Positions 217 through 59,959 of a stretch of DNA of 59,959 bases are shown one piece after another. A program made the position numbers and the translations under genes. The stretch is taken from the NCBI GenBank assembly GCA_964434145.1, contig CAYSUG010000004.1, positions 1 through 59,959 of the forward strand. The letters run 5' to 3'. Origin of the DNA: an uncultured Christensenella sp. GTDB taxonomy: Bacteria > Bacillota > Clostridia > Christensenellales > UBA1242. The stretch's first letter is position 1; every line of letters starts with the position of its first letter. The notes under the pieces are model-generated. The model was not told where the DNA came from and did not search any database. It saw only the letters and a list, made by a program, of their open reading frames with translations.

Positions 217-1827
<1,611 letters not shown>

Positions 1828-23273: not shown

Positions 23274-23306
23274 ATTATACCATCCCCCCCCCCCCCCCAG
23301 GTGCAA
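23274..23306 (-). promoter_or_regulatory. candidate promoter TTGCAC-(21 nt spacer containing G15)-TGgTATAAT
   Basis: On the minus strand, TTGCAC is at 23306-23301, followed by CTG, G15 at 23298-23284, ATGG, and TATAAT at 23279-23274 (TGn extended -10). Confidence 0.6.
23284..23298 (-). repeat. homopolymeric G15 tract (C15 on the plus strand)
   Basis: Counted directly: 15 consecutive C at 23284-23298. Confidence 0.95.
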
Positions 23307-23450
23307 CTAAATAAGCGGCATAATCTATAATTTTGCGACAATTAGCCGTATTCCATTGTTAATTTTGCACGATTATTATACTACAAAGACTCCAATATTA
23401 ACACATGTATATACACACAGATGACTTGTCTAAATATAATCTATGTGTTA

Positions 23451-23779: not shown

Positions 23780-24001
23780 ATGGCAAAGAATTCTGATTAT
23801 TTTGGTTTGAGTAGAATTATTAGCTTGATCCTAGCAATCATTCCAGTTACATCATGGATCTGTGGTGCTGTAACAAGATTTGCGGAAGGCAAGATTGTTG
23901 CTGGTCTAATCAGATTAATCTTTGGTTTCACTATTGTGTGGATCCTAGACTTAATCTTCATGATTTTGAACGGCAAGATTTGCAGACTACTTAACGTTTA
24001 A
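23780..24001 (+). CDS. small two-TM membrane protein (73 aa), unknown function
   Basis: A strong SD (AAGGAG), two hydrophobic helices, and its own terminator. Confidence 0.65.
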   Translation: MAKNSDYFGLSRIISLILAIIPVTSWICGAVTRFAEGKIVAGLIRLIFGFTIVWILDLIFMILNGKICRLLNV

Positions 24002-36117: not shown

Positions 36118-39100
36118 CTACTCTTGTGTTCCCATACCATTCATTGTCCTATATACAACTTTGATATTGCTTGATAACGGATCCAAATCCCAAATCGAAG
36201 GATTAGTTGCATTTCCTAAGACATTATCAAAGATATCATAAGGATTCGCTGAGTCATAAGAGTATGCACTGTCTGGCATATCACCAGTATATGTTCCTAT
36301 GCCAGAAGGTGTAGTCGTATATTGTTTGAATACATTGCTATTATAATATACTCTATCAAATGTAACACCACCAGCGTTATTCGCATATACGCCACCTATT
36401 GTAGCGGAATCGTCTATGGAACTATTTTGCGAATCTAAATCTATAGTGGTATATATATTGGACAATTCACAAGAACTACTTCCATTCTCATACTTGGCAT
36501 ATACAGCACCAAACTTAGCATTGCTGGTAATTTTTAATCCAGCCAATTCCACATAACTATTGGATATTGTTACACTCATCTGTGGTTTGATATAACATAC
36601 CAGTCCACCAATATAATAATCTGACGTTCCGCTGCCACTCATAGTACCAGTATTATAACATCTATCAACAGTGCCCGCATATACAAATGCTGCAATTACG
36701 CCCATATTACGTCCTGTCATTATTCCACTATAAGAGCTAACATAAATACCTGCATTAGCATAATTAATATTATCATATCCGTTGTATACAGCAATGCCTG
36801 CTAATCTAGCATTCGCAGCCCCAGTAGTCTCTGTAATATTGGCAGAGACATTAGCATATGCAATTGTGCCCATATTACTATACACAACACCACCAATATA
36901 CGCATTTGCATTGCTTGTTATTCTTGCCACCAAATCACCAGACACATTCACATTGGCAATCAAACCGTAGTTATATATAGCCACAACACCAACATAAGTA
37001 GGCACCGTTCTATCAATAACATTGTCATCATTATTAGTTAGAACAATATTCATATTTATAACCGCTGCAGTGCTTGCGATATTATAGAACAATCCAGCAT
37101 AATATGCACTGCCCGCCTCATCTATAGAACTGCTAGATATCAATACGTTAAATGAATAATTGCCACCATCTAACACACCATTGAATGCCTTCTGATTATT
37201 TAGTCCCAATGTAGCAGATACAGTCTCTGTAATATCAGTATTTACCACAAAATGGCAGCTTTCGTCAATATAATACTCTATACTATTTAGACTCTTGATT
37301 ACAAATGGTGTATCCTTACTACCATCACCACCGGCAAACAACGTAAAGCTTAATTTTTCCAACATTGTAGGTTTGGATATAAATGATGATGTATTGTCAC
37401 CTGAACTTGTATTACCTGAACCTACAGACATATTACCTATCGCCCTTATTGTCACATTGGTAATATTGTTGGACAAATAACGCAATTTGTAATAAGCATA
37501 TATTGTCTCATCATTTGACTCATCTATAACACTGTATGTAATTACATCTTTGCTATTAATTGTAATAATATCTACATAATATACATTCTCCGTATTCTGG
37601 AAATCAAATACATCTCTATTATTATAATCATTTGCATTTAGACCTAATAGATTGATAACTTGCAGTCTTAGTTTGTCTATTTCTGCCCTCTTGTCTCCAA
37701 AATAATTACCTGAATGAATACTGAAATTATCATAATTTATTATCAATCTAGTAATATTGTTATAATGACTTGTTGCCTCAGTTGCATCTTCCCTTTGATA
37801 AGCTACTACAATCTCATAATTAACATTTCTAACATATTCCCATGATAACGTTCCGTTATTATCATAGCTAAGACTTTCTGGCGTACTAGGCAGCGATATC
37901 TCCATTGCTTGTGCTAACTTCGTCTCTGTAGCAAGGTGATATGTCAAATAATATGTATCGTTGATACTATCCTTAGCTATAGAAGATTCTATTGTATCAC
38001 CTATTGATTGCAGATATATATAGATACTAGAAGAATCCAAAGTATTAAGAGTTCTATCCATTGCAAAATATATATTGTCGTCACTGATGCTAAGGCAAGT
38101 ATTGTAATCACCCTCCATAGCCACAAGATCTCCATTATTATCTATCTGATATAGTGTAACGATAGAACCACGTATCTTATAGATATAACGCAATACCGCA
38201 CCCTCCAATACATCACTATGACTAGTATATATCTCTATATTATAACTCACAACATTATCATTCGGCTTTTCCCAATAAATATAGTTACTATATTTGTATT
38301 CTGAAGGAATGCCACTAAATATACTTTGTTCTTTCGCATCTGTAGAAGCCTCGTATTGTCTAGGATTAACTGCTGTATCTGGATTGTTTAGCATAACAAA
38401 ATTCGTCATTACAGCCTCGCTAGATATCACATACTCTGTATTCTCACCAAATGCGATATTGTATCTGTTTTCATTCGCAAAGAATCTAATAGATACCTCA
38501 TAGTTCTGGCCTTCTATGAATTGAATCGTTGATGATCCATGACCATTTGGATTATCATTAGTAAATTTTGCCTTGTAGTGATCTGCAGAACTAGTTCCGT
38601 CAATCTCTATAGAAATTTTTTCTGCTAATATTTTCTGGAACTGGAAGCTAGATATATCATAGCCAAATTCTAACTTAAGCGTAGTATCTACCTCAGTCTC
38701 TACATCCCCTACATAGACCTTTCCCTTAATCGTGATTCTGGTTGCAGCTAGCTCGCTGCCCATTACACTTGTAGTTGTATTCCAACTAATATCTCCGTCT
38801 GTTACCCTAACCTCAGGATAATGAATAGTCCTAATATAGAAGTCTGCAGTGTATACGCTACGCAATATTGCATCCTTAACCTCTGGAGACGTATCTGAGA
38901 AATTGGTTTTGTCTATAGACTTGATCTTGATTGTATAGGAACCTGCATTTGGAACAAACTTGTCGCCAATACCTACACCATCAGAATCGTATTGTGGATA
39001 CAAACTGTATATATTTAGGCTCTTAGACTTTAATACACCTGATGTATATACAAGATTACCACTAGAGTAGATGAATACAATATAGTCATTATTATAACTA

Positions 39101-42100
39101 TCTGTCCACGATATATTTCCGTCCTCTCCTATAGAGATAGTTCCACTAATCTTATCTGACCTGTATCTATCTATATCGGTATGTATGTCATTAGGTAGAA
39201 GATAATTAATACCGGATGTATTACTATACACCTTGATTGTATATTCATTCTGAGCCCCCGTCTCTGCACTTCTACTTAGATACTTCTCTGGCAATTCAAA
39301 AATTGTCTTTGTTGCATTACTATTAGATGTAATCCAATATCTGTCTTGTGCCTCATTAAAATTACCATTGTGATACACGTCAACGATATAATTGCCATAA
39401 TATAATGCATCACCAGTATGATAAGCATTGCTACGTAATATATAAGTTGCATTATCCCAAGTATATAATCCATTCTCTACACTAACTTGGATCTTTGCTA
39501 ACTTCTCAGCAAAGAAATCACTACTATCGCTAAGTCTAGATGACAACATATTTTTACCATTGCCAATTGCTCTAACTTTGATATTATATATTCCTGCTCC
39601 CAAGTTGGAATTATCGCGAATGTCACTAAATGTATAAAGTTCCTTGCCATCTACATCAGTTAAAGTCTGTCTAGCGTCTACAATTTCTTCGCCAGCCTCA
39701 TTATAGAAATATATGATATATTCCTCTACATTAGCCTCAATCTGCCATGTAATTGCCTCGTTACCAATCTGCAATATAGGAGCAGAAATCACCTTGAATG
39801 AAGTCGAGGAATTAGAATAGTCAGAATTCAAGAATGTGCTACCACCTAACGCCTTGACACTAATCTTGTAATTAACACCGGCAGTAAGAGGTATAAAATC
39901 CTCAAATCCACCCTCTGCAACAAACAAATCATATATGTCTACCACTACCAGATTGTTAATTGTATCAAGAGACACACCAGAAGTTGTTAATGTGCTAATA
40001 ACAGCATTCTGGATAGCCACGCTGCTAATAGAAGGACTGAATGTCAGCATATAACTGGTCACGTTGTTACTGTTTGAATCTACGCTAGGAGCAAAGACTA
40101 ATTTATCATCATGTATCAATATATCGCTTGATTCCACCCTAGGAACTCCTGGTCTAGTCAATTTGAATGCATCGGTTACAGATTGTGACTGCAATGAAGC
40201 AAGTTGTGGAATGTCACCAATCGTATCATTGAATGTATTGCCATTGACCGACAAACTGATAGTATATTTTCCACTAGGGAATGATTCTGACAGAACGAAT
40301 TCTACTTTGATTCTATTGCAATCTGTCCAGTCCTCTTCTGCAATATTTCCAATCTGTGTTATATCAAAAGACTTACTTCCGCCATCAGTAGTCTTCAGTA
40401 TAATACTATAATTAGCAAACATACTATCCCCTAGCTGATACTTAACATTATTGATAGTAACATTCGGAGTAATAAATGAATACAAGAATGATTCGCTATT
40501 TAGTACATCTCTAATCGTATAATCAAGATTTACCCCAAGTGCATAATTGGCTACGCTAACCATTGCGGCTACATTATCTGCCCATATATTGTACACTATC
40601 ATTCCATTCTCTATCTTCAATCCACTGAAGATTTTATCTTGTAATGTATTAATTGCAACAAAATTATTTAATGGATGGGTTTCCGTCGTTGCTTTGACCA
40701 AGAATTTATTAGACACTGTCTTATTCTCTATCTCTACCTTGATATACTCCGCAGTCTGGATACTACCATTATCAATGGTCTTGATATCAAAGGTATTACC
40801 AGTCGTACTGGTTATGTACTGGATTCCTGCCTCATATTCTTCTGCATCGCTATCGAATGTATAAGGAGTAAATATAAGTTTGTAATAATCTATATTTGCT
40901 ACTGTATCCCAAGTAAGAATACCACCCTCTAACCTAATATTCTCTACAGTATTGGTCAGAATCTGTGCTACAGCAACTTTGGTTGTATCTGGATTATTAG
41001 AACCATTGGAACTATTAAGATAATATGATTCGCCCTCTGCCAAATTTCTAGAATCTAGGGTTCCTCCGGCCATAACGTAATATTTGTGCTGTCCTAACAT
41101 CACATTCAGATCAACAGCATATCTATACACAGCTTCACCAGATACTAATATTGTGTCTGTAGTGTAGCTAACATTAGCGGAATAATCATATACATAATAC
41201 TTTGACGCATTCCTAATCTCTTTCCACTCTAAATATGCAACTCTATCGAATGTTAGTTCACCCTTGCCATTAATCACATTATTGATTGTAGGACTATCTA
41301 GCTTGGTCGCAGATAGTGTCTGACTAACCGAACTAGTGATTGCATTATCCTTCTTCGCTCTAATGGAGAAGATATATGTTCCAGCATCAAAGTCTAGAGA
41401 CGACATATCGAAATAATACTGGCTAGATTGTCCCTCTCTGGATATAAGTGTCGAATTGGCATTAATATTTTTGCCACTAGGATCTACATAAGACAAGTTA
41501 TATCTAGTAGCCGATACATCATTCCATTTGATAACTCCATTCTCTACAAACAGTATTGGCGTCTCTACAATGCTTGCATTTTCTACGATTGCGTCCGCAT
41601 CAATATATCCACTACCATTATCACCAACTAAATTAACAACCACTAAGTAATCACCAGCTGGAATATTTGCCACATCTACTGTCAAATCCTTGATATAATC
41701 AGCGTCAAACAGCAAGTCCGCGTTAGCATTTATCTGCCACGTATATTGATGAGTATATGTATTATCGCCATTATCCTGATAGAAGTAAATATTAGCTTCT
41801 TTTAGACCAGCCACATCATCTAGCCCAGTCACATTCACCTTACCGTCGTCAATTGAGAACTCTACATTAGAATTGTCTAATTTATTAAGTTCAATAGAAT
41901 ATTCAGTTATATCCCTTGTAGATACAGACAGTACTCCATTAGTTTTATCGCTAGTATAATTAGTGTTGTTGTAACCCAATGCATTATTTAAGGTTATTGT
42001 GATAGATGATATATCTTGATCATGAATATATACCTTTCCACCACCACTAACTAGAGCATCACCATCATCAACAACATCCACGACATCTATATCAAGACGG

Positions 42101-45100
42101 ATGATATATGTATAGTTGTCATAAATTACATTGATATTACCGCCAGTATTGTTGCCAGAAGGAGATATAGCTCCAGATTGATTAGCCAGGATTGTGTAAG
42201 AATGCAAGCCAATTGTCATACTATATGATTGTGCCAAATCTTTGCCAGTCGTTGTGTCCCTATTAGGCTCTGGCACAGCCATGGATATCTGTATATAATA
42301 ATCAGACTCACCCCTAACAATCTCAGCGTCAAATAATACAGCGCTTAATTTCATGAATGTAAAATTTTCACTATAATTACTCTTTAATGCACCACTATTT
42401 GGTTGGCTCTGAATAGATATAGTATATATTCCAGATTCTTTGCCAGCAAAGTTAATAGCACCGCTATGTTCATCACTAGGCTCATTATTGATAATATAAT
42501 TGTACACATATCCAGCATTATCATTACCACACCAAATGGTTGTAGCATTATTAATTATCTGGATGCTGGATATCGCCGTAGCCTTCGATATATTGTTTAC
42601 GCCGCTAACGCTATCCAATATTGCCGAACTATTTGCCATATAGTATATATTAAATTTAAAGTCTCCACTAGGCAATAGTACCTCTTCTCCCAACTCATTC
42701 ATTACCATGACACTAGCAAAATCTATAATAATATTGTCACTGACTGTGCCTGACTGGAAGTCATGTGTATAGATATATGTATTCTCGCCTTGGACAAAGT
42801 GTAACTCGATTGCTTGTGTATTGTTATCCGCCTTAGTAGGATCCAGCGTCAACTTCAAATTGCCATTATAATAACTAACCCCGTACTGATCATTAGCAAG
42901 CTTGGACAATGTATCCTTGTTACGACCTTCTATAATGGCCATATTAGAGATATAATCATCACCTACGACTTGGATAGTTGCTACGATATTATTGGTCTGC
43001 CATGTCGCCATTAGTGTACCAATAGCCTCTATTGTGATAACATATTTGCCACCTTCTAATATTAAGTCACTAGAATCCTTAATTAACTCTTTTGAATTAT
43101 TACTATTGGAGGCGTCTGTCAATGTAACGATATACTGACTAACTTTGTCTACACCACCAACCATATTATTGGCTGTAAATGAAAGTTTTAGATTCTCTGT
43201 CGCATTAGCACCGGTAATAATATCTATAGTCGCACTCAAGTCGGCAACATCCGATAATTTGTGGAATATATACTCTGTTGCCTTGCTATTCAACTTACCA
43301 CTCTCTACCGCAGTCAGAATCATTGTATGCTGACCAGCAGACAAGGATGTCGTATCTATTACTCCACCTTCTCCATTGTATTTGATAGCAGAGCCAGAAT
43401 CTATTGTGTATGTATACTCTACGCCATCAGCGACTGAGATGCTTAGTGCCCCATCACTAACTGATGCTGTAGGTGCAGTAGACAACCTAATATCTGTTAG
43501 TTCTGAGACTGACTGATTAGTCACAAGTAGGTCACCGCCAATATAACGTAGCGTTGCTGTGTATATCTTGACTTCTTCTAAGGCTGTTGGAGCATAAGAA
43601 TAACCATTCTTCAGGTCGGTTGGAGTGATTATCTTACTTTCTACAACTTTGCCTTCTGCATCATATATTATTAACTCCGCAGTCGCCTTAGTATCAATTT
43701 TATCTTTTGGCAATTGTATCTTGCCACCCACTATAGACATAGCATTAGGCTGAGCTAAGAAGTTGATTGTTACAGTACTAGTTGTATTATTAGTAATGTA
43801 GCCAATCTGGTCTGTAGACAATTCTTCTATAGTACTACCCACAACAGATGCCATCGTAATAGTAGCATCGTCACCAGTTATTCCTAATCCGCTATGATCT
43901 ATGATCAGAGTATATGTGCCAGCACTATATGTTATGCTGTAACCTTCTGCTGAAAGAGCGCTATTGGCTACAACCACATATTCTTTTGTTACATTATCAC
44001 TAGTCAATCTAATTATATACTTGCTAGCCAGATCTGTGTCTGTATCGTATTTGTTCTTCGCATCCCAAGTAATGACATATTGCGATATCTGATATTTATC
44101 ATTCGTATCATAAACTATAGATGCAGATATGGTAGAACTAGCCAACTTCTGCAACGTATACACATCAGACTCATCACTAATTAATGCACCAACCTTGCTA
44201 ACACGAATTGCGAACTGCTGTTCGCCAGTAATATTATTTATGTTAGCTAGCTTTTTGCCGCCCTTGTTATATGCTGTATATGTATAGCCTTCTCTTCCTA
44301 CTATCTCTGCCAAACCATCACTTAATACAATTTTTTCTGCTATATCAGTTCCAAATACAGCATTCTTAGTAATTGTCATATCTGTTGTCGCTGCACTAAC
44401 CACCCCTAATCTTCCTGTTTTATTTAGCTTGATAGTATAGCTATAGGTGCCAGCATCAAATGCTGCAAAATCCAGAATCAGCTTGCCGCTAGTCTTTGAT
44501 ACGCCTAGCACGCTATTGTTGGTTCCTGTAATAGCGGACTGAATATTGTTAGTATCAACAACAAATTCTTCGTTATTGATGTCTAGGATAACTAAAGTAT
44601 ATCCACTAGGCAATGCACCTAGATCCAATTGCATTGTATCATTTATGGCAATCTTGCTTGTATCAAATGCATTGTGATATGTAAATGTAGCAGTCATACC
44701 ACCTGTGCTATTATACGCCACATCGTTGGCATCATCTATTATTCCTACTGCATGGATATTAAGCTCACAAGTTTGCCCAGCCGTAACAAAGCCTATTTCT
44801 TTCAATTTTGCAATATCCAGTGTATATACGCCATTACTTGCAGCCAGTGCATATTCCGCCACATCATTCTTAACTGCATCGTTATACAACACTGAAGTAA
44901 TAGTAGAACTAACCCCATCGATATTATAAATCAATGTGTTATTATTAGATTTGTTAGTAATAGTCAACACATATATACTAGTTACATTGACGCCATCCAT
45001 CTTGTGGTTATAGAATGTTAATTCATCTTCGCTGACGAATGTTAAACCTGCAGTAAAAGCCGTATTCCTAATCTCGACTATATTACTTGCTCCTGAAGAC

Positions 45101-48100
45101 AAGTAATAGTTGTCTCTACTAGATGCAGCACTGCAGACTACATAGTATGAGTAATTACCAGAGGTGATATTATCAGCAATGACCACTCTGCCCTCTGACT
45201 CGCCTAAATCTATATCTTGCTTAGAGTAAATTGCACTTGTAGTTAACTTCCTATACACATCATACTGAATACCAGATATTTCTGTATTTACCTTTGCAAA
45301 GGTAGGCCTATTGACTCCTTCAATACTAGTTATACTTAGTTCCACTGGAGCCAATTTGGTTAGTACAAACACTTTTGTTTGGCTATCTAGCACGAATCTT
45401 GTGGTTAATTCATTGAAGTCTGATGAGATATTACCAGAAGCCATCACACTGGCATTATATTCACCTGCAGATACAATTACATTCTTAGTATCATATATAG
45501 CATTCAGAGGATTAGTGAACTGTGCCAAGATATCAGAAGATCCCGCTGGCATATCTATGCCCAGTGTTATCTTGGACATATCAGACGAAGTAACATTGTT
45601 TAATCTTATCTGATAGTCTACAACCTCCACGCTAGGCTGAGCCAATCTTACTATTGTAATCTGGCTAGCAGTGCTACTAAGATACGCCATATCGCTCGAT
45701 TGAGTATATGTAGCATTAGTATATGACGACATCTCAAAAAGATATTCGCCAACACCTGTAATCCCCAGTCCGCTTTCTCCTATAGCAATATCTGCGATAT
45801 TGTAACCATAATACAAGTTGTTGATATTAGTGTTAAGAATAGCAGAATTACCCACGCTATTTATTGCATTGACGACATAGCGGATATTGTCCACATCCTC
45901 TATTTTGGATTTCTCCCACACAATATATTGTGCATCATTCAAATCTATAACAGAGAGTATTGTCTTAGCCAATTTCTTGAACTTGATTGCTGCACTATAC
46001 TCGCTATCAAATGCACCAACCTTCCTTACCTTGACCCTAGCAGAATATTCTATTCCGTCTAATATATTGTAGTCTGCCAAATCTAACAAATCCAACTTGT
46101 TAACACTACCACTAATGTTTGATACATTGAATTCTTTTTTAGTAGATGCAGAAGATATCTCTACAACATAGTTACCAATGATACTATCTGCAAAATACAT
46201 TGTATCGTCTGTAATAGTTATATCAGATATTGCAGATAGTTTCACAATAGTGCCAGAATTAAAATTAGATTGCAGGATCGTTGAACCACTAACCAATCCC
46301 ATTACAGACAGTGTGATAGTATTATCACCTGAAACCAAAGCCTCCTCTATCTCTGTGCCAATATAGCTTAGATAATTCTCTCCATTATTAACTATAACAC
46401 TAGCACCGCCCACTGAGACCTTGTAGGATATAGCACTATCTACGCTATCCCATACTATCTTGTCTCCAGCATCGTTCAGTTTGATATTATCAGTCTCCGC
46501 GAATTTATAGAACCCAATTGTTGTTGCTGCACCAAATACGCCTCCGACACTAGACACTGACTCAATGGTTATGACATATGCATCGCCACCTACATTGCTA
46601 GCAATCTTGTGATAACCCACGAAATTATCTAGCTTATCAATAACATTAATATTGTCATTGGTTGTAACAACATCTGAATATGTGGATGCCCCTATTTGAT
46701 ATGTAACGTTATAAGATGTAGCACCTGCGACCGCGTCAAATGATAGAATGCCGTCTTTGCTCAAGCTCACCCTAGTAGGTGCACCTATTGTCTGATAAAC
46801 TCCACTCTTTTTAATAGTAGTTGTCTCATGATTGATAGTATTATTGTGACCCTTGGAGAAAATATATAGGTCATAAGTACCAGACTCTGTAATAATACTC
46901 TGCAGATCTACCTGAGAAGAAGTAGTTGCTGTCTTTGTAATAATATTTTTGTCAGATACGAACACTAACTCTATCTCTTCAATATATTTTTCTGATGTCG
47001 CCTTAGTAGGAATTGTATACGACAAAATACTACCGTTGATAGTTATGCCAAATGCATCTACAGATGGCGTATATTCACTTAAATCCACCTTGCTACTAGC
47101 CGCCACACCACTATCTATGACCAAGACATTGTCTATAGCCGCATTGCTATCCGCCCCCAGATCACTACTATTCATAGGCATAAATGCGGATACTGTCACA
47201 ACATATTGATTGAAGTCCCCATTACTCCTAAGATCGGATAATACACTAGATGTAAGGTCAAAAATTGGTGTATTGTCTAATCCACCAAAGTCATTATAGT
47301 CTACAACATAATTCTTAGACAATGATCCGCTAACAATATTGACCAAATAACTAATCTTTCTACGCACGGACGCATCGTCTATAGCATGACTCCATGATAT
47401 CCTCGTTGGACCATATGTAGTTACACTATTTGATCCAATTACAACATTCGCAGTAGTCTCGTTGGTGTATGTTACTGATACCGGGTCTAGAATTGCCACC
47501 TTAGTAACATTAGTAACTGGACTATCGAAAAACTCTATATCGTCCTCTACCACACTATTAAGGATGTTTGTATAATTAGCCCCTTTGTCCACAATTGTGG
47601 CACGGAACGATATGTCATATATCTTATCATCACTTCCTAGAGACGCCAGAGACCATGAATCTATTGCCGAGGTCTGCCTATACAGATAATCTGTGTTATC
47701 ATCTATCGCCTTGAACGCCACAACAGCCTTAGCATTGGAGTCTATACCTTTTAGCTTAATTTCTCTATCCTTGAAAGAATATGTAGGAGTGTCTAATATA
47801 TAGAACTTGTACTTATCACTCTTCTCACCACTGGTTGTGAGTGTATTATCCCCTAGTGCTTGTATAGTAATCTCATTAATAGTACCAGTATAGAATCCAC
47901 CAGCAACATCTTCTAACTTGAATGACGACACACCCGCCATAGTTGTATAATTGATACTCTCGCTCTTACCGTTAATAGTGTATTGCAGCTGAACTGCATA
48001 TTTGATCTTGCTAGCATCTATTGCCACATTCTCAGTATTGCTAGTAACAGGCAACCACGAAATTTCACTGCCATTATATTTCACATTGGTCACTTTGTTC

Positions 48101-48564
48101 AAGGTAGATGGCTGAGTCACAACGACCTTGACACTGCTAGACACGATTGTATCACCGCCAGATTTATCTGACACTGCCGCAAAAGTAATAGTCACAGGAG
48201 TATTACCACTAGGCATACTATTCACGCTAAATCTAACAACCCCAGTCTGCTCGCCATTAACATTATCTTCCGCCTTGGCTGTAATAGCCGAATCGCTAGT
48301 GGTTACCACTATATAATATTGATCCAGATTGATTGGACTAGCGACATATTTCAAAGAAAACTCATTGACATTATTTAGGTTAACCACAAATGTCTTGTCC
48401 TCTCCGTCAGATATATCCACCAGATTGTCGTCATTGGCCATTACATCTATACTCTCTACAGTATAGTTGGGTGGCTGCTTCATCAAAGACGCGACTAAGC
48501 CAATCGTTAACCCTACTATCGTTATACTCATGATAATCAAAATTATTTTTACAGATTTTTTCAT
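36118..48564 (-). CDS. giant N-terminally anchored surface protein (4148 aa): many FN3/Ig-like modules plus a C-terminal GLUG-like beta-helix domain
   Basis: A single 12.4-kb ORF with SD GGTAGGTGAG and signal anchor MKKSVKIILIIMSITIVGLTIGLVASL. It has at least 14 modules with a recurring [IL]xW..V..A..Y signature, for example ISWLPVTS, KIVWDSVDSAISYKV, VIKWNDVSATRYNL, ILTWDTVANIDYYKL and TLSWEYVRNVNYEI. Confidence 0.9.
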   Translation of the reverse strand: MKKSVKIILIIMSITIVGLTIGLVASLMKQPPNYTVESIDVMANDDNLVDISDGEDKTFVVNLNNVNEFSLKYVASPINLDQYYIVVTTSDSAITAKAEDNVNGEQTGVVRFSVNSMPSGNTPVTITFAAVSDKSGGDTIVSSSVKVVVTQPSTLNKVTNVKYNGSEISWLPVTSNTENVAIDASKIKYAVQLQYTINGKSESINYTTMAGVSSFKLEDVAGGFYTGTINEITIQALGDNTLTTSGEKSDKYKFYILDTPTYSFKDREIKLKGIDSNAKAVVAFKAIDDNTDYLYRQTSAIDSWSLASLGSDDKIYDISFRATIVDKGANYTNILNSVVEDDIEFFDSPVTNVTKVAILDPVSVTYTNETTANVVIGSNSVTTYGPTRISWSHAIDDASVRRKISYLVNIVSGSLSKNYVVDYNDFGGLDNTPIFDLTSSVLSDLRSNGDFNQYVVTVSAFMPMNSSDLGADSNAAIDNVLVIDSGVAASSKVDLSEYTPSVDAFGITINGSILSYTIPTKATSEKYIEEIELVFVSDKNIITKTATTSSQVDLQSIITESGTYDLYIFSKGHNNTINHETTTIKKSGVYQTIGAPTRVSLSKDGILSFDAVAGATSYNVTYQIGASTYSDVVTTNDNINVIDKLDNFVGYHKIASNVGGDAYVITIESVSSVGGVFGAATTIGFYKFAETDNIKLNDAGDKIVWDSVDSAISYKVSVGGASVIVNNGENYLSYIGTEIEEALVSGDNTITLSVMGLVSGSTILQSNFNSGTIVKLSAISDITITDDTMYFADSIIGNYVVEISSASTKKEFNVSNISGSVNKLDLLDLADYNILDGIEYSARVKVRKVGAFDSEYSAAIKFKKLAKTILSVIDLNDAQYIVWEKSKIEDVDNIRYVVNAINSVGNSAILNTNINNLYYGYNIADIAIGESGLGITGVGEYLFEMSSYTNATYTQSSDMAYLSSTASQITIVRLAQPSVEVVDYQIRLNNVTSSDMSKITLGIDMPAGSSDILAQFTNPLNAIYDTKNVIVSAGEYNASVMASGNISSDFNELTTRFVLDSQTKVFVLTKLAPVELSITSIEGVNRPTFAKVNTEISGIQYDVYRKLTTSAIYSKQDIDLGESEGRVVIADNITSGNYSYYVVCSAASSRDNYYLSSGASNIVEIRNTAFTAGLTFVSEDELTFYNHKMDGVNVTSIYVLTITNKSNNNTLIYNIDGVSSTITSVLYNDAVKNDVAEYALAASNGVYTLDIAKLKEIGFVTAGQTCELNIHAVGIIDDANDVAYNSTGGMTATFTYHNAFDTSKIAINDTMQLDLGALPSGYTLVILDINNEEFVVDTNNIQSAITGTNNSVLGVSKTSGKLILDFAAFDAGTYSYTIKLNKTGRLGVVSAATTDMTITKNAVFGTDIAEKIVLSDGLAEIVGREGYTYTAYNKGGKKLANINNITGEQQFAIRVSKVGALISDESDVYTLQKLASSTISASIVYDTNDKYQISQYVITWDAKNKYDTDTDLASKYIIRLTSDNVTKEYVVVANSALSAEGYSITYSAGTYTLIIDHSGLGITGDDATITMASVVGSTIEELSTDQIGYITNNTTSTVTINFLAQPNAMSIVGGKIQLPKDKIDTKATAELIIYDAEGKVVESKIITPTDLKNGYSYAPTALEEVKIYTATLRYIGGDLLVTNQSVSELTDIRLSTAPTASVSDGALSISVADGVEYTYTIDSGSAIKYNGEGGVIDTTSLSAGQHTMILTAVESGKLNSKATEYIFHKLSDVADLSATIDIITGANATENLKLSFTANNMVGGVDKVSQYIVTLTDASNSNNSKELIKDSSDLILEGGKYVITIEAIGTLMATWQTNNIVATIQVVGDDYISNMAIIEGRNKDTLSKLANDQYGVSYYNGNLKLTLDPTKADNNTQAIELHFVQGENTYIYTHDFQSGTVSDNIIIDFASVMVMNELGEEVLLPSGDFKFNIYYMANSSAILDSVSGVNNISKATAISSIQIINNATTIWCGNDNAGYVYNYIINNEPSDEHSGAINFAGKESGIYTISIQSQPNSGALKSNYSENFTFMKLSAVLFDAEIVRGESDYYIQISMAVPEPNRDTTTGKDLAQSYSMTIGLHSYTILANQSGAISPSGNNTGGNINVIYDNYTYIIRLDIDVVDVVDDGDALVSGGGKVYIHDQDISSITITLNNALGYNNTNYTSDKTNGVLSVSTRDITEYSIELNKLDNSNVEFSIDDGKVNVTGLDDVAGLKEANIYFYQDNGDNTYTHQYTWQINANADLLFDADYIKDLTVDVANIPAGDYLVVVNLVGDNGSGYIDADAIVENASIVETPILFVENGVIKWNDVSATRYNLSYVDPSGKNINANSTLISREGQSSQYYFDMSSLDFDAGTYIFSIRAKKDNAITSSVSQTLSATKLDSPTINNVINGKGELTFDRVAYLEWKEIRNASKYYVYDYSANVSYTTDTILVSGEAVYRYAVDLNVMLGQHKYYVMAGGTLDSRNLAEGESYYLNSSNGSNNPDTTKVAVAQILTNTVENIRLEGGILTWDTVANIDYYKLIFTPYTFDSDAEEYEAGIQYITSTTGNTFDIKTIDNGSIQTAEYIKVEIENKTVSNKFLVKATTETHPLNNFVAINTLQDKIFSGLKIENGMIVYNIWADNVAAMVSVANYALGVNLDYTIRDVLNSESFLYSFITPNVTINNVKYQLGDSMFANYSIILKTTDGGSKSFDITQIGNIAEEDWTDCNRIKVEFVLSESFPSGKYTISLSVNGNTFNDTIGDIPQLASLQSQSVTDAFKLTRPGVPRVESSDILIHDDKLVFAPSVDSNSNNVTSYMLTFSPSISSVAIQNAVISTLTTSGVSLDTINNLVVVDIYDLFVAEGGFEDFIPLTAGVNYKISVKALGGSTFLNSDYSNSSTSFKVISAPILQIGNEAITWQIEANVEEYIIYFYNEAGEEIVDARQTLTDVDGKELYTFSDIRDNSNLGAGIYNIKVRAIGNGKNMLSSRLSDSSDFFAEKLAKIQVSVENGLYTWDNATYILRSNAYHTGDALYYGNYIVDVYHNGNFNEAQDRYWITSNSNATKTIFELPEKYLSRSAETGAQNEYTIKVYSNTSGINYLLPNDIHTDIDRYRSDKISGTISIGEDGNISWTDSYNNDYIVFIYSSGNLVYTSGVLKSKSLNIYSLYPQYDSDGVGIGDKFVPNAGSYTIKIKSIDKTNFSDTSPEVKDAILRSVYTADFYIRTIHYPEVRVTDGDISWNTTTSVMGSELAATRITIKGKVYVGDVETEVDTTLKLEFGYDISSFQFQKILAEKISIEIDGTSSADHYKAKFTNDNPNGHGSSTIQFIEGQNYEVSIRFFANENRYNIAFGENTEYVISSEAVMTNFVMLNNPDTAVNPRQYEASTDAKEQSIFSGIPSEYKYSNYIYWEKPNDNVVSYNIEIYTSHSDVLEGAVLRYIYKIRGSIVTLYQIDNNGDLVAMEGDYNTCLSISDDNIYFAMDRTLNTLDSSSIYIYLQSIGDTIESSIAKDSINDTYYLTYHLATETKLAQAMEISLPSTPESLSYDNNGTLSWEYVRNVNYEIVVAYQREDATEATSHYNNITRLIINYDNFSIHSGNYFGDKRAEIDKLRLQVINLLGLNANDYNNRDVFDFQNTENVYYVDIITINSKDVITYSVIDESNDETIYAYYKLRYLSNNITNVTIRAIGNMSVGSGNTSSGDNTSSFISKPTMLEKLSFTLFAGGDGSKDTPFVIKSLNSIEYYIDESCHFVVNTDITETVSATLGLNNQKAFNGVLDGGNYSFNVLISSSSIDEAGSAYYAGLFYNIASTAAVINMNIVLTNNDDNVIDRTVPTYVGVVAIYNYGLIANVNVSGDLVARITSNANAYIGGVVYSNMGTIAYANVSANITETTGAANARLAGIAVYNGYDNINYANAGIYVSSYSGIMTGRNMGVIAAFVYAGTVDRCYNTGTMSGSGTSDYYIGGLVCYIKPQMSVTISNSYVELAGLKITSNAKFGAVYAKYENGSSSCELSNIYTTIDLDSQNSSIDDSATIGGVYANNAGGVTFDRVYYNSNVFKQYTTTPSGIGTYTGDMPDSAYSYDSANPYDIFDNVLGNATNPSIWDLDPLSSNIKVVYRTMNGMGTQE
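36121..37347 (-). other. C-terminal 409-aa GLUG-like / parallel beta-helix domain of the 4148-aa protein
   Basis: GDGSKDTPFVIKSLNSIEYY...FNGVLDGGNYSF...YAGLFYNI...YVGVVAIYNYGLIANVNV...YIGGVVYSNMGTI...YIGGLVCYI. The same module type is found at about 21627-22355 in the 611-aa protein. Confidence 0.65.
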
Positions 48565-53362: not shown

Positions 53363-53438
53363 AACTCACAACAAAAAGACAATATCCTCTGTCAAATATT
53401 GTCGAAAATAAAAAAAGCTAAGAGCAACAACCCCTAGC
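53363..53438 (-). terminator. two tandem rho-independent terminators after the 196-aa gene
   Basis: Hairpin 1 spans 53417-53438 (8 bp including 2 G-U pairs) followed by T7. Hairpin 2, GACAATAT and ATATTGTC, spans 53368-53393 followed by T5. Confidence 0.65.
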
Positions 53439-53450
53439 ATTTCCTAATAA

Positions 53451-54041
53451 TCAAATACCAGCATAACTAATATTAATAACCACATCCGCAGTAAGTATCG
53501 CATCTAATGACGCATCTGTCACAGACATAATGACAACAAATGTATGACTAGCACCATCCTTTCCCACACTATACCATGCAGAATCCTTCTCACTAGCGCT
53601 ATCCTCACTCACGCCCAGCTTAACAGTAATATTGTCATCCTCTGTCATTCCACTGATGTCTACAGAATAGCACAACCAATCACTGCTTTTCTCTGACAGA
53701 TTAGTAATAGTAAATGAATATACCGCTCTGCCAGTAGATGTAAGAGCCACGTCACTAAATCTAATATAGCCATTATCATTCCTATCTTTGGAAAAAGATA
53801 CATTGCCACTATACCCTTCTACAAAAGGAATCTCTACCCCTTCCATATCACTAGGACTAGCATACTGTCTGCCGTGCGCCACAATTGAACAAGCCGTTCT
53901 ATTACTCTTATAACCAATAGCCATAGATGTAGGTTCGTTCATACTGGATGCAGCTAAGACTAACCCAGCAGTCAAGGACACTACTGCCAATATCAAAACT
54001 ATGCCAACTACACTTATGAGAATCTTATATCTATTACTCAT
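53451..54041 (-). CDS. N-terminally anchored protein consisting only of the family N-domain (stand-alone paralog of the N-terminal modules of 21378..23213 and 58510..59829)
   Basis: 196 aa with signal anchor MSNRYKILISVVGIVLILAVVSLTAGLVLAA. The shared motifs are SM(A/T)(I/V)(G/S)Y, F.DV.L....AVY.F.I.N, NI.VK.G and the terminal I.ISY. Confidence 0.75.
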   Translation of the reverse strand: MSNRYKILISVVGIVLILAVVSLTAGLVLAASSMNEPTSMAIGYKSNRTACSIVAHGRQYASPSDMEGVEIPFVEGYSGNVSFSKDRNDNGYIRFSDVALTSTGRAVYSFTITNLSEKSSDWLCYSVDISGMTEDDNITVKLGVSEDSASEKDSAWYSVGKDGASHTFVVIMSVTDASLDAILTADVVINISYAGI

Positions 54042-54083
54042 AACTCATCCTCTCCCTTACCCAAAAAAATAAACACTACGCAT

Positions 54084-54112
54084 AGTATAGCACAATAATA
54101 TCTAATTTGCAA
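54084..54112 (-). promoter_or_regulatory. promoter TTGCAA-17 nt-TGcTATACT of the 196-aa gene
   Basis: On the minus strand, TTGCAA is at 54112-54107, the spacer is exactly 17 nt, and TATACT at 54089-54084 is preceded by TGC. Confidence 0.65.
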
Positions 54113-54144
54113 CCCCTAATTTAGCCGTATTAGAATGTTGACCA

Positions 54145-54171
54145 GAAAAAGCGGTTTCAATAAAACCGCTT
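54145..54171 (-). terminator. rho-independent terminator after typA
   Basis: On the minus strand, AAGCGGTTT-TATTG-AAACCGCTT is followed by a T-run. Confidence 0.8.
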
Positions 54172-54176
54172 ATAAA

Positions 54177-56012
54177 TCATTCAACATCGATATTATTTTT
54201 CTTTCTAAAATCCGCCCTGCCTCTAAGTGTATGGTCTAGAATAATTTTTCTTATTCTTAGACTTGTAGGAGTAACCTCTAACAACTCGTCATCGTTAAGG
54301 AATTCTAGACTCTCTTCCAAAGTCAGCTTCCTTACTGGCTCCAATCTTAGAGCCTCGTCACTGGCACTAGAACGCATATTGGTCAATTGCTTTCTTTTGC
54401 ACACATTGACAACAATATCATCCATTTTAGGATTAATGCCTACAACCATTCCGCCATAGACCTTGTCGCCAACCGTTACCAGCAATCTACCCCTCTGCTG
54501 AGAATTGAACAAGCCATATTGAATGCATTCGCCATTCTCGTAGGCAATTAGTGTGCCAAAGTTCCTTCTATCTATGTGTCCCTTGTATGGCTCGTATCTC
54601 TCAAAAATTGTGTTCATGATACCCTCACCATTAGTGTCGGTCAAGAATTGCCCCTTGTATCCAAATAGTCCTCTCGTAGGAATCAAGAACTCCAGCTTCA
54701 TTCTGCTACCAGCGTTGGTCATTGTCACCAATTCACCCTTTCTAGAACCCATTGCATTGATAATAGTTCCCGCACAACCCTCTGGAACATCGATAAATAG
54801 CCTATCTATAGGCTCGTGCTTCACACCATCTATCTCTTTGATCAGAACTTTCGGCATACTTACTTGGAATTCATATCCATCTCTACGCATATTCTCTATC
54901 AGTATTGATATATGCATCTCGCCTCTGCCTAGAACCTTGAACGTATCTGCACTCTCAGTCTCCAGAACCTTTAGACTCAAATCCTTAGTAGCTTCTTTTA
55001 AAAGTCTCTCTCTCAGGTGCCTACTAGTACTATATTTTCCTTCCTTTCCACAGAATGGACTATTATTGACCATGAATAGCATCTCCATGCTAGGCTCAGA
55101 TATTTTAACAAATGGAATGGTTGTCACATTATCCTTGTCTGATACTGTGTCACCAATAGCGACCTCTGTACTGCCAGCAATACATACTATATCACCCGCA
55201 ACAGCCTCCTCTACAGGAGTCCTCTTCAATCCGTCGAAGACGAATATACCTGTTACTCTGAATGCTGGCTTTGAAGCCATGCTATCATGATAATTAGTAA
55301 TAGCTAGGTTTTGTCCTACTTTTAGCTTCCCATTCTCTATCTTACCGATAGCAAGTTTTCCTAGATAATCATTCTGCTCTGCAGAACTAACCAACATAGC
55401 AAATGGCTTGGTCTCATCACCCTGTGGCGCATCTATATAGGATATAATAGTGTCAAACAAAGGCTTGAAATCTGTGCCTTGCTGATTAGGATCCTTGGAG
55501 CTAAAGCCATATCTGCTGGATGCAAATACAAATGGGCTGTCCAGCTGCTCTTCATTAGCATTAAGATCCATAAACAGCTCCAATACCTCATCCATTACTT
55601 CCTTGACACGAGCATCCTTCCTATCAATCTTGTTAATAACAACGATGACCTTGTGATTCAACTCCAATGCCTTCTGTAGTACAAATCTGGTCTGTGCCAT
55701 TGGTCCTTCGAACGAGTCTACGACAAGTAACACGCCATCTACCATCTTCAGCACTCTCTCTACCTCTCCGCCGAAGTCCGCGTGTCCTGGAGTATCAATA
55801 ATATTGATCTTCACACCCTCATATGTCACTGCTGTATTCTTGCTAAGGATAGTAATGCCACGCTCACGCTCTAGCGCATTGCTGTCCATTACTCTGTCCG
55901 CAACCTCTTGATTCTGCCTAAACGCCCCGCCTTGCTTCAACAATTCATTAACCAGACTAGTCTTGCCATGGTCTACGTGGGCAATTATCGCAATATTTCT
56001 AATATCTGTCAT
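54177..56012 (-). CDS. typA: translational GTPase TypA/BipA
   Basis: 611 aa. [28 protein letters not shown] and NKIDR are the G-motifs, and the EF-G-like domain order is typical of BipA. Confidence 0.97.
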
Positions 56013-56196: not shown

Positions 56197-56223
56197 TTGA
56201 CAATATATATATATATATATAAT
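56197..56223 (+). promoter_or_regulatory. promoter TTGACA-(AT)n spacer-TATAAT upstream of the 217-aa gene
   Basis: TTGACA is at 56197-56202, (AT)9 at 56203-56220, and TATAAT at 56218-56223. The spacer is 15 nt as assembled. A T-rich UP-like region lies upstream. Confidence 0.6.
56203..56220. repeat. dinucleotide repeat (AT)9
   Basis: Counted directly. Confidence 0.95.
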
Positions 56224-56258: not shown

Positions 56259-56912
56259 ATGGGAATTATAGACAAAGTATCTAACTTCATTGATGACAAA
56301 ATGCATGATGCGGCATTAAAGAAAGACGCAGCAACATATGGGCTAAGTGACACTCACTTCATAGACGGTGACTTTATGAAAAACATTGTTGGTTGGGAGC
56401 CCCTAACATATACTAACGAAAAGGGTACCGCAACAGTGGGCGACGGAATAAGATTCTATAGAGAAAATGCAGAAGGAAAGATGCAGGTCGTTACACTACC
56501 TGGTCTAAGCTCTAGACAGAATGCACCAAAGGCTTCTGGCTGTGCCAGAATGGGAATATCTTATGTCCTAGAGGGTCATGAAGATAAGCTAAAATCCAGT
56601 GCAGATTATCACAAAGTAGAGAACGAAGGCGATGTAATGGACGCCCTAGTCAGCGGAATACACTCTGGAGGAGAACAAATCATTACAGATTACTTCAATC
56701 CAGAATTTGCATCAGCACCACAGACCAAGGCTTTGTTACAGAAATCATGCGAAAAACATCTAGAACAGGCTCAAACGCACAATGAAGAGGCTAAAAAGCA
56801 AGGTAGAAAGCAAGTGTCAATAGAGTCCATCAAGGCACATGGCAAGAAAATCATGGATACACTTGCTAATATCGCCTCCAGATTCCGCCAACACGAGGAA
56901 ATGGGAGAATAA
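56259..56912 (+). CDS. hypothetical soluble protein (217 aa)
   Basis: The SD is AAAGGAG. There is no TM segment or signal peptide, and I recognised no family. Confidence 0.65.
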   Translation: MGIIDKVSNFIDDKMHDAALKKDAATYGLSDTHFIDGDFMKNIVGWEPLTYTNEKGTATVGDGIRFYRENAEGKMQVVTLPGLSSRQNAPKASGCARMGISYVLEGHEDKLKSSADYHKVENEGDVMDALVSGIHSGGEQIITDYFNPEFASAPQTKALLQKSCEKHLEQAQTHNEEAKKQGRKQVSIESIKAHGKKIMDTLANIASRFRQHEEMGE

Positions 56913-58509: not shown

Positions 58510-59829
58510 CTATGCACTATAGAATCCCCACAAATCAAAAGACACACTAAGGCCTGTAACAGCATTGGGTGTCGAACCAGACACAGCTATAACGAATGTT
58601 ACACTATTCTCAATAAATTCTGAATCGTCAAGACTGTAATAATCAGTAAATTCACTACTATAATTCTCACGAAGTTCGCCATATGTTACAGTCTTGTTAC
58701 TAGATGAGTACGTGGTCAAATCTGCACTATTAGTACTAGTACCTATCTTATATGTATAACCAGAGGTTATAGAAGATAGTGTCATCGATGCCATATCTAG
58801 ACACTTGTTACTAGTCAGTGTATATACATAATAAGTTGTATTATAATAATCAGACTCTGATGAATATATATCATCTTGCAAGATATCTAATGTCTGTGCA
58901 ATAACGGTAGAACCTGGCCAATTGGGATATGTTTCCTTTGCATACATATCTATATATTTAGAATCCAATAAGGTAGTTGGGCTATTATAACCGCCGTATA
59001 CATCAAGAGTAAGCTTAGCAGAGGTATTTAATATATAAATATTTTGACCTACAATACTGGTGGTTAGTGACTTTGTTTTACTCTCCTCAAATGTATTAGA
59101 ATATATATCTTTGCCCAGTTGGATATTGAATCCAACAGAAAGGTCAGCATCCATAGACAAATCATCTGGCTCTAGCCTTAGGATAATAGTTGCAGACTCG
59201 TCCGCTGGTCGAATAGATACATATTCTGAACTTCTCTCTGACAGACAATATTGATAATGTCCACAAACTCCCTCAAAAGTATCAGTATCTGAATTGTAAA
59301 GATAACCATCGACATCATTAAACTCTTTTCCAATACTTACCTTGATGTTATCATCCGCTGTCTCGCCAATTGTATTAACTAGTACACCTAATGCTGGCGC
59401 CTCATCAGTATGCGTATGAGCATAATTCGATGCCAAAGATCCATCATAATCTCCCGCTACCAGATTAGGTGTATCTAGGTTACTGATCTTGAAGCGATAC
59501 TCTACGTATTCACCAGCACCTAACTCAACATCCTCGAATGTAAAGCCACCCTCTACAGACTCATCTGCAGGATGGAATTGTACACTGCCAGATGCTACTC
59601 CATCTGCTCCGTCATCTATTAATACTGTCGTACTTGTACCGCTTGGATTCACTACCTTGGCACTAGCTTCAATCTTCGCATTCACATTAACAGCCTTGTA
59701 TGACACGGTCATGCTATTGGAAACAGTAACACGTGTAGCCACCAGAACCAGTGCAATAGTTGCTCCTATTAACGCAAGAGCCATAATCGCAATAATGCTA
59801 ATTATTATAACTTTTTGTTTTGTTTTCAT
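58510..59829 (-). CDS. N-terminally anchored surface protein, paralog of the N-domain family (439 aa)
   Basis: The likely start is the ATG at 59829 (MKTKQKVIIISIIAIMALALIGATIALVLVA) with AAAGGAG 7 nt upstream. This is the same start context as 21378..23213. The motifs SMTVSYKAVNV and YVEYRFKISNLDTPN are shared with the paralogs. Confidence 0.8.
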   Translation of the reverse strand: MKTKQKVIIISIIAIMALALIGATIALVLVATRVTVSNSMTVSYKAVNVNAKIEASAKVVNPSGTSTTVLIDDGADGVASGSVQFHPADESVEGGFTFEDVELGAGEYVEYRFKISNLDTPNLVAGDYDGSLASNYAHTHTDEAPALGVLVNTIGETADDNIKVSIGKEFNDVDGYLYNSDTDTFEGVCGHYQYCLSERSSEYVSIRPADESATIILRLEPDDLSMDADLSVGFNIQLGKDIYSNTFEESKTKSLTTSIVGQNIYILNTSAKLTLDVYGGYNSPTTLLDSKYIDMYAKETYPNWPGSTVIAQTLDILQDDIYSSESDYYNTTYYVYTLTSNKCLDMASMTLSSITSGYTYKIGTSTNSADLTTYSSSNKTVTYGELRENYSSEFTDYYSLDDSEFIENSVTFVIAVSGSTPNAVTGLSVSFDLWGFYSA

Positions 59830-59892: not shown

Positions 59893-59923
59893 AGTATACA
59901 CTACCCCCCCCCCCCCGGGGGGG
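59893..59923 (-). promoter_or_regulatory. candidate promoter region: C7-G13-TAGTG-TATACT upstream of the 439-aa gene
   Basis: On the minus strand, G13 is at 59916-59904, preceded by C7 at 59923-59917 and followed by TAGTG and TATACT at 59898-59893. The layout mirrors 23274-23306. It lies at the window end, so a possible -35 is not interpretable. Confidence 0.45.
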
Positions 59924-59959
59924 AAGGAACGGGGGGAAGGGGTTAAGTTTTGTGTGGGG

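Follow-up and report, generated by a model that had tools for sequence, protein, structure and literature searches.

The stretch of DNA analysed here, called the window throughout, comprises 59,959 nucleotides (nt) of contig CAYSUG010000004.1 from an uncultured Christensenella sp. (GenBank assembly GCA_964434145.1). Its GC content is 37%, and its gene content points to a spore-forming member of the Clostridia as the host. Three genes of the window, P0001, P0002 and P0003, encode proteins in which an N-terminal membrane anchor is followed by the same kind of beta-sandwich module, and the relationship of these proteins, together with the way in which their promoters are built, is the subject of this text. 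The three genes, with protein lengths in amino acids (aa), are located as follows:

53451-54041, minus strand: P0001, 196 aa; N-terminal membrane anchor and beta-sandwich module, nothing else
21378-23213, minus strand: P0002, 611 aa, GTG start; anchor and module, then a C-terminal domain with a GLUG-like motif
58510-59829, minus strand: P0003, 439 aa; anchor and module, then a C-terminal region matching nothing known

The protein family and its fold

P0001, P0002 and P0003 are true paralogs, their N-terminal ~200 residues being matched in pairwise BLASTP at E 2e-9 (P0001/P0002), 6e-6 (P0001/P0003) and 2e-14 (P0002/P0003), with 26% protein identity between P0001 and P0002. An initial annotation of this DNA had described a signal anchor and a beta-rich module shared by all three proteins, and this is borne out by the pairwise comparisons, by alignment A1 and by a profile search, homology among the three N-domains being detectable both pairwise and with the family profile. 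The motifs that it listed can roughly be seen in alignment A1, with the variant TMTVSY in P0002 and a weak last motif in P0003, and its description of the 196-aa protein as the module alone agrees with the coordinates of the open reading frame (ORF), the alignment and an AlphaFold2 (AF2) model. When a hidden Markov model of the family was run against the six-frame ORFs of the whole window, P0001, P0002 and P0003 were the sole matches (next best E 0.9). The family had been called three-membered, which is accurate inside the window, where the profile finds exactly three, and falls short beyond it.

A set of 1.84 billion representative proteins, searched with the family profile, yielded 226 clusters (counted at 50% identity) at E <= 1e-3, 72 of which passed E <= 1e-10. 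Most of these are 185-230 aa long and consist of the anchor and module alone, as in P0001, with others reaching 350-1,000 aa or more. In a paralog census, for which GTDB species genomes were scanned with conserved N-terminal peptides, 13 paralogs were found in the metagenome-assembled genome (MAG) 'Clostridiales bacterium SIG400' (one of them the P0002 ortholog), 7 in the goat-caecum MAG 'Clostridia bacterium RGIG1719' and at least 2 in assembly GCA_054275055.1. So far the family occurs in uncultured Clostridia only, from rumen, goat-caecum and other metagenomes. No relatives were confirmed in a metagenome-contig scan with alignment A3, no contigs on record were found to encode P0002 (from the 611-aa or the 642-aa start) or P0003, and a k-mer homolog search for P0003 gave no ortholog. 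Pfam, NCBIfam and PDB sequence searches returned no relative of the family module, and literature searches returned no description of this family, nor of repeat-spacer promoters in Clostridia.

The N-terminus of the family is strongly conserved, with a basic tail M-(K/S)-x-K-Q-K, about 25 hydrophobic residues ending in ..IGLxIGLVLVA-x-Q-A and, after this helix, the conserved sequence N-S-M-x-V-x-Y-x-A-x-N-V. The hydrophobic helix is most likely an uncleaved N-in signal anchor, as predicted from its sequence. Anchoring as a lipoprotein was rejected, as neither P0001-P0003 nor the family consensus has a lipobox Cys after the hydrophobic stretch. In longer relatives the module is fused at its C-terminal side to BspA-type leucine-rich repeats (LRR_5, E 1e-110), to Big_2 or to a pectate-lyase-like adhesive domain, and the C-terminal domain of P0002 gives a weak Pfam match to GLUG. 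Because longer members fuse the module to LRR, Big_2, pectate-lyase-like or GLUG domains, the module would be an extracytoplasmic base for adhesin-type domains, and the fusions imply a putative shared role in surface adhesion, with surface display of the family proteins as the expected arrangement. While the BspA-type LRR (PF13306) and GLUG (PF07581) domains of adhesins from gut Firmicutes and Bacteroidota are thus found C-terminal to the module in longer members, the combination of anchor and module belongs to no described adhesin architecture, and P0001 carries no adhesin domain. A giant protein of 4,148 aa elsewhere in the window (36118-48564, minus strand) has at its start a signal anchor with IVGLTIGLV, resembling the IGLTIGLVLVA helix of the family; the family profile does not match it.

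In comparisons with sister species, identity amounts to 97% for BipA and 96% for RNase J, as opposed to 64-71% for P0001 orthologs and 59-62% for P0002 orthologs, so that, judged by these identities, the family evolves faster than its neighbour genes. Around P0001 itself, divergence differs from gene to gene, from 97% identity in BipA (54177-56012) through 64-71% in P0001 to 49-55% amino acid identity in the downstream 346-aa protein, which has an acidic linker.

An AF2 model of P0001, built from a 43-sequence alignment (predicted local distance difference test, pLDDT, 91), contains a helix at residues 3-32, a disordered linker at 33-37 and a 10-strand beta-sandwich that makes up the module of ~160 aa. 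In Foldseek searches against the PDB the matches were weak, the best being FimA-type pilins (6r7e, 2m5g, 5nkt; probability 0.97-1.0, best E 5e-4) at a TM-score of 0.33-0.42, a root-mean-square deviation of 9-12 Å and 8-12% sequence identity. On the strength of the model, the module is a generic sandwich of the immunoglobulin (Ig)-like class. Of the two folds proposed at the outset, an Ig-like beta-sandwich is therefore supported at the generic level only, and a TasA/camelysin-like fold is not, since TasA is missing from the top 50 Foldseek PDB matches for two models and there is no hit to PF12389. For the latter family (Peptidase_M73), no hit was obtained at E <= 1 in the three window proteins or at E <= 0.01 in 43 family members, and these 43 members gave no other Pfam hits either.

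The best Foldseek matches raise the question of whether the module might be a TasA/camelysin-like or pilin-like fibre subunit, with the family forming filaments instead of anchored monomers. The probability of the FimA-type matches, the conservation of the N-terminal helix at a pilin-like level and a weak match, below threshold, to the N-terminus of the GspH pseudopilin (20.8 bits, where the cutoff is 80; E 3e-4) would favour this, as would the first strand N-S-M-T-V-S-Y, which by eye is like N-T-F-x-x-G-T, which we take to be a TasA-family motif. The FimA subunit of type 1 pili also has an Ig-like beta-sandwich of similar size; however, the family protein has an N-terminal transmembrane helix and no donor-strand or chaperone-usher context, and chaperone-usher pili require an outer membrane, so that an usher would not be expected in a monoderm host. 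A type IV pilin or pseudopilin was considered as a candidate and rejected, because the N-termini (MKTKQKxxxIxII..IGLxIGLVLVA) lack a Gly at -1, a G|F/M junction and a Glu at +5. With the prepilin-peptidase motif absent, TM-scores low, deviations large, and neither TasA nor any Pfam or PDB sequence hit recovered as described above, a fibre subunit is considered very improbable.

Promoters of the family genes

The elements found upstream and downstream of the three genes are the following:

54084-54112, minus strand: P0001 promoter, sigma-A-type and repeat-free; TTGCAA (54112-54107), 17 nt, TG-n-TATACT (54089-54084)
54149-54171, minus strand: bipA/typA intrinsic terminator upstream of P0001, a hairpin conserved in orthologs
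53417-53438, minus strand: terminator-like hairpin downstream of P0001, which makes P0001 monocistronic
23274-23306, minus strand: P0002 promoter; TTGCAC (23306-23301), 21-nt spacer with G15 (23284-23298), TG-n-TATAAT (23279-23274)
59893-59916, minus strand: tract upstream of P0003; G13 (59904-59916), then TAGTG and TATACT (59898-59893)

Syntenic orthologs of P0001 lie directly downstream of bipA in at least 3 further genomes, in the order bipA, P0001, the 346-aa gene and veg, and the transcription unit is isolated, because the bipA/typA terminator precedes it. A contig from sequencing run SRR14307658 has a P0001 locus identical to that of the window. In the aligned intergenic regions of the orthologs (L002, L003/L005) both the bipA terminator and the 17-nt spacing are conserved, with TTGCAA, TTGCAT or TTGCCA as the -35 box and an extended -10 TGTGnTATACT or TATAAT, and no repeat is present in these promoters. 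The repeat-free P0001 promoter TTGCAA-17-TGcTATACT had been read correctly at the outset, and its repeat-free state is thus kept in orthologs from three sister species. As mentioned in the initial annotation, P0001 and P0002 were thought to share a promoter type; this is correct only as far as a sigma-A consensus with an extended -10 goes, and nothing more specific is shared. Because its spacer is fixed at 17 nt, its -10 is extended and terminators lie on both sides, P0001 would be the stably expressed member, and constitutive expression of this gene is what its sequence suggests.

The promoter of P0002 has the layout TTGCAC-ct-G15-atgg-TATAAT, and the placement of its -35 box 21 nt from the -10 by the G15 tract was described correctly from the start, in coordinates as well as spacing; a promoter scan limited to 16-18-nt spacers missed it because the spacer is 21 nt. 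In two sister species, syntenic orthologs of P0002 are found between the FTHFS and RNase J genes, and all have a poly-G tract at the same promoter position, in the form TTGACT-aa-G8/G9/G10-tagatgg-TATC(A/C)T. The tract sets the spacer in these orthologs at 18 nt with G9 (L010), 19 nt with G10 (L011) and 17 nt with G8 (L012). L010 and L011, which encode the same protein and come from different metagenomes, are identical over 1.88 kb except for one G, and between species the tract length varies as G8, G9-10 and G15. The possibility that G15 lies inside a longer ORF (the TTG-642 frame) was rejected, since TAA and TAG flank the tracts of the orthologs and the TTG codon has no ribosome-binding site (RBS); because of these flanking stop codons the tract is regarded as non-coding. 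Divergent from P0002 is a gene for a 73-aa two-transmembrane protein (23780-24001, plus strand), which has a counterpart at the same position in L010 and L012 (74 aa) and no Pfam match.

For P0003 the -35 box is not readable, as the contig ends in G/C-rich, low-quality-looking sequence: the 43 bases past G13 (59917-59959) are G/C-rich (plus strand GGGGGGGAAGGAACGGGGGGAAGGGG...) and resemble a low-quality read tail. A (TA)n promoter is also seen in the nearest relative of the P0003 module (42% identical), on a contig that begins at the -35 box.

Across the family, the spacers between -35 and -10 boxes contain poly-G tracts of 8, 9, 10, 14 and 15, and (TA)n in at least 6 paralogs. In the goat MAG the promoters TTGACA-N6-G14-TAAACT and TTGACA-N7-G8-TAAACT are found, while other paralogs have interrupted or short G runs. 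G14 and G8 belong to the stand-alone members L026 and L029, respectively, so that the initial description of the stand-alone member as the one without a homopolymer fits P0001 and does not hold as a rule. Nearly all SIG400 paralogs have perfect TTGACA and TATAAT boxes, the repeat form being TTGACA-(TA)n-TATAAT. Uninterrupted repeats are present in six of these promoters, once as (CT)n(TA)n, and the spacers there measure 17, 19, 17, 19, 19 and 19 nt, whereas all five interrupted or repeat-free promoters have spacers of exactly 17 nt (hand-computed Fisher exact P ~0.045, on small numbers). Repeat-free paralogs with 17-nt spacers serve here as an internal control, and the contrast is the pattern that would be expected if repeats generate off-optimal alleles.

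Of the long TA or G repeats present in ~100 kb of retrieved loci, only one does not sit 50-115 nt upstream of a family start codon, and in the window both G tracts of at least nine, which make up two of its three long repeats, lie just upstream of family genes. A promoter-spacer repeat of the kind described for porA, hif and Vlp is present in P0002, in its orthologs and in the SIG400 paralogs, and is absent from P0001.

In SIG400 the paralogs share a homologous block of promoter, 5' untranslated region (5'UTR) and signal sequence, including a TTTTCCACAAAATAT-like 5'UTR motif, and nucleotide identity is 70% over codons 1-45 as opposed to 55% in the rest of the module. The 5'UTRs of SIG400 loci L014-L025 have in common TT(T/A)TCCACA(A/T)AATAT, ~35-50 nt upstream of the starts, and a TGTAAATAAA box before the RBS; neither is found in the three window genes, and the shared motif may be a post-transcriptional element or a duplication relic.

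In several independent assemblies, breaks have been seen at or near family promoter repeats, at L011/L013 positions 1-13 (one contig starts inside poly-G) and at L032 positions 1-30 (-35 box before (TA)n), and the contigs of L035 and L036 start ~20 nt after (TA)10. Breaks beside promoter repeats would fit an origin in the repeats themselves or in heterogeneity. A further repeat promoter of the window lies outside the family: TTGACA-(AT)9-TATAAT (56197-56223, plus strand; 15-nt spacer) precedes a 217-aa gene (56259-56912) whose product has no transmembrane segment and no Pfam match. In sister species L003 its ortholog (75% identical) is preceded by (AT)7 with an 11-nt spacer (505-525, minus strand), and the repeat length at this gene thus differs between species, (AT)9 in the window and (AT)7 in L003, with both spacers under the usual functional range.

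The 11-mer upstream of P0001 and P0002

Two copies of an exact 11-mer had been pointed out initially, and both are confirmed, with no third copy in the window:

54121-54131, minus strand: 11-mer AATACGGCTAA, copy 1, 9 nt upstream of the P0001 -35 box
23342-23352, minus strand: 11-mer AATACGGCTAA, copy 2, 36 nt upstream of the P0002 (G15) -35 box

The accompanying estimate that such a match arises by chance about once in 400 was too optimistic. When the actual sequences upstream of the two genes (140 and 200 nt) were shuffled, a shared word of at least 11 appeared in 1.8% of trials (P = 0.018), and among real 150-nt upstream pairs in the window 27 of 630 (4.3%) share a word of this length, many of these words being AT-rich. 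In the orthologous upstream regions of P0001 or P0002 (including L010 and L012) the 11-mer is absent, though adjacent promoter elements are conserved, and it is absent from 31 non-identical loci, which include more than 20 paralog upstream regions.

The 11-mer had been proposed as a shared regulator site, and a regulator co-controlling P0001 and P0002 through it would be in keeping with an exact word, not of low complexity, whose only two occurrences in 60 kb lie upstream of family genes and on the gene strand. In addition, a gapped local alignment around the 11-mer, extending over ~46 nt through TTGCAAATTAGATATTAT versus GTCGCAAAATTATAGATTAT, reaches a score of 29, above 99.9% of plain shuffles (P ~0.001). 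This alignment also counts against a match by pure chance, and leaves some room for a recent shared origin of the two upstream regions. However, with the 11-mer held fixed, the extension into its flanks is not significant (P 0.09-0.12). The word is neither palindromic nor repeated, it stands at 9 nt from one -35 box and 36 nt from the other, it is kept in no ortholog of either gene while promoters and terminator are, and it is missing from the paralogs, with a chance level of ~2% per pair and some 4% of real upstream pairs sharing such a word. A binding site is thus very unlikely, and the proposal of a regulator site does not stand.

A different account of the same alignment is that the 11-mer and its flanks are a relic: duplication of the gene would have carried along a P0001-like promoter region, and the copy would now be decaying upstream of a newer poly-G promoter of P0002. 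The score of the 46-nt alignment is what speaks for this origin, as opposed to the weak extension beyond the fixed 11-mer and to the orthologous P0001/P0002 upstream pairs of sister genomes, which show no similarity (P 0.36-0.63). Moreover, with proteins only 26% identical, any similarity in non-coding DNA of equal age should have been lost; a relic is accordingly held to be improbable, if slightly less so than a binding site. Most probably the two copies of the 11-mer match by chance, or at the very most the match is specific to the strain, as its absence from relatives suggests, and as a false lead it is not worth pursuing as a regulator site.

Repeat-spacer promoters as candidate switches

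We consider it likely that P0001, P0002 and P0003 belong to a paralog family of anchored Ig-like-module proteins in which many genes have promoters with slippage-prone spacers, with P0001 stably wired and the 11-mer present by chance. This reading starts from the homology, the fold class, the promoter anatomy, the conservation of tracts at differing lengths and the absence of the 11-mer from relatives, all established above; from these we infer on/off switching. Each protein would consist of a short basic tail (M-K/S-x-K-Q-K), a hydrophobic helix as anchor, a short linker and the ~160-aa 10-strand Ig-like sandwich, which would stand alone (P0001 and most clusters) or form the membrane-proximal base for adhesin-type domains. 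Many paralogs would have their own sigma-A promoter with poly-G or (TA)n as the -35/-10 spacer, slippage during replication would bring the spacer into the functional range of 17 +/- 1 nt or take it outside, and these shifts would switch each gene on or off independently. With G15 and a 21-nt spacer, P0002 in its assembled form would be expressed weakly or not at all, while the fixed spacer of P0001 and its bipA-linked orthogroup would lead to stable expression. The initial picture of one constitutively and two stochastically wired copies is supported in its contrast, by the repeat-free P0001 promoters of orthologs, the G8-G10 tracts of P0002 orthologs and the repeats of paralogs, and gives way in its 11-mer part and its three-member scope.

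Several observations weigh against this reading. The G9/G10 difference comes from low-coverage assemblies (~1.8x k-mer coverage) and could be an assembly error, and no variation in TA length was seen within a strain, the (TA)10 of L022 being the same in three assemblies of one strain. The extended -10 of P0002 (TGnTATAAT) can lessen dependence on the -35 box and on spacing. In addition, a stand-alone module of 160 aa at the membrane of a walled monoderm may not reach the cell surface.

The first three of these points, and the resemblance of the contig end past G13 to sequencing noise, would equally suit an explanation in which the repeats arise at AT-rich or GC-rich promoters either as neutral by-products of mutation or as errors of assembly and the genes are conventionally expressed or regulated, with no contrast between constitutive and stochastic members and the extended -10 bypassing any spacing requirement. 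What argues against it is that tracts of 8, 9, 10 and 15 occupy the homologous promoter position in at least 4 independent assemblies from 3 species, that repeats are almost exclusively upstream of family genes, and that repeat-free paralog promoters all have 17 nt as opposed to the 17-19 nt over which the repeat-bearing ones scatter. G tracts of at least eight are also very rare at 37% GC, with only two in 60 kb. Neutral repeats are for these reasons an unlikely explanation, and slippage-prone spacers are preferred.

The design of these promoters has counterparts in several bacteria. In Mycoplasma hyorhinis, the Vlp genes reportedly have poly-A in the -35/-10 spacer (Rosengarten & Wise, 1991, cited in the review PMC11868660). 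M. capricolum Vmc and M. mycoides Vmm have a (TA)n promoter spacer, and in Neisseria meningitidis porA and opc the interval between the -35 and -10 boxes contains poly-G/poly-C. Multigene surface families subject to phase variation are standard examples in mycoplasmas and Gram-negative pathogens; to our knowledge they are essentially undescribed in the spore-forming anaerobes among the gut Firmicutes, for which most of the literature on switches concerns inversions.

Like the family described here, the Mycoplasma Vlp, Vmc and Vmm proteins form multigene membrane-anchored families in which each gene has its own repeat-spacer promoter, and in Vlp and Vmc a conserved block of promoter, 5'UTR and N-terminal signal is likewise followed by a variable remainder of the protein, an arrangement that would allow combinatorial on/off expression. 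The present system is different in that its hosts are walled, spore-forming Clostridia and not Mollicutes, that the anchor looks like an uncleaved transmembrane segment with no lipobox Cys, and that a folded Ig-like module is conserved where the Mycoplasma proteins have repetitive ectodomains of low complexity. The present family, whose switching is a prediction from sequence, moreover uses poly-G as well as (TA)n.

Another example is the Haemophilus influenzae hifA/hifB promoter, for which the passage of PMC11868660 that cites the original work gives (TA)9-11 (van Ham et al., 1993). In hif, as in porA and opc, the repeat is the promoter spacer, its length sets the -35/-10 spacing, and the genes encode surface proteins. 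However, those are single loci in Gram-negative pathogens with measured switching, whereas the present case is a paralog family in uncultured commensal Firmicutes, seen by comparative sequence only. As a mechanism the proposed switch is already known; the lineage and the protein family are new.

A further-reaching possibility, which we regard as doubtful though somewhat less so than neutral repeats, is a combinatorial surface coat like Vlp/Vmc in spore-forming gut and rumen Clostridia, with dozens of paralogs per genome independently switched around a stable bipA-linked core and with the helix as a dedicated sorting or assembly signal and not a generic anchor. In such a coat the modules may assemble with one another in the membrane by means of the helix, and the stand-alone member may provide the scaffold.

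What is new here is the definition and size of the protein family, its fold, the family-wide link to repeat promoters with the 17-nt internal control, and the negative result for the 11-mer. Together with the slippage-prone spacers that we consider likely, the family may be of use for finding out how uncultured Clostridia of the rumen and gut vary their surface, phages and host immunoglobulin A (IgA) being examples of what such variation could be directed against.

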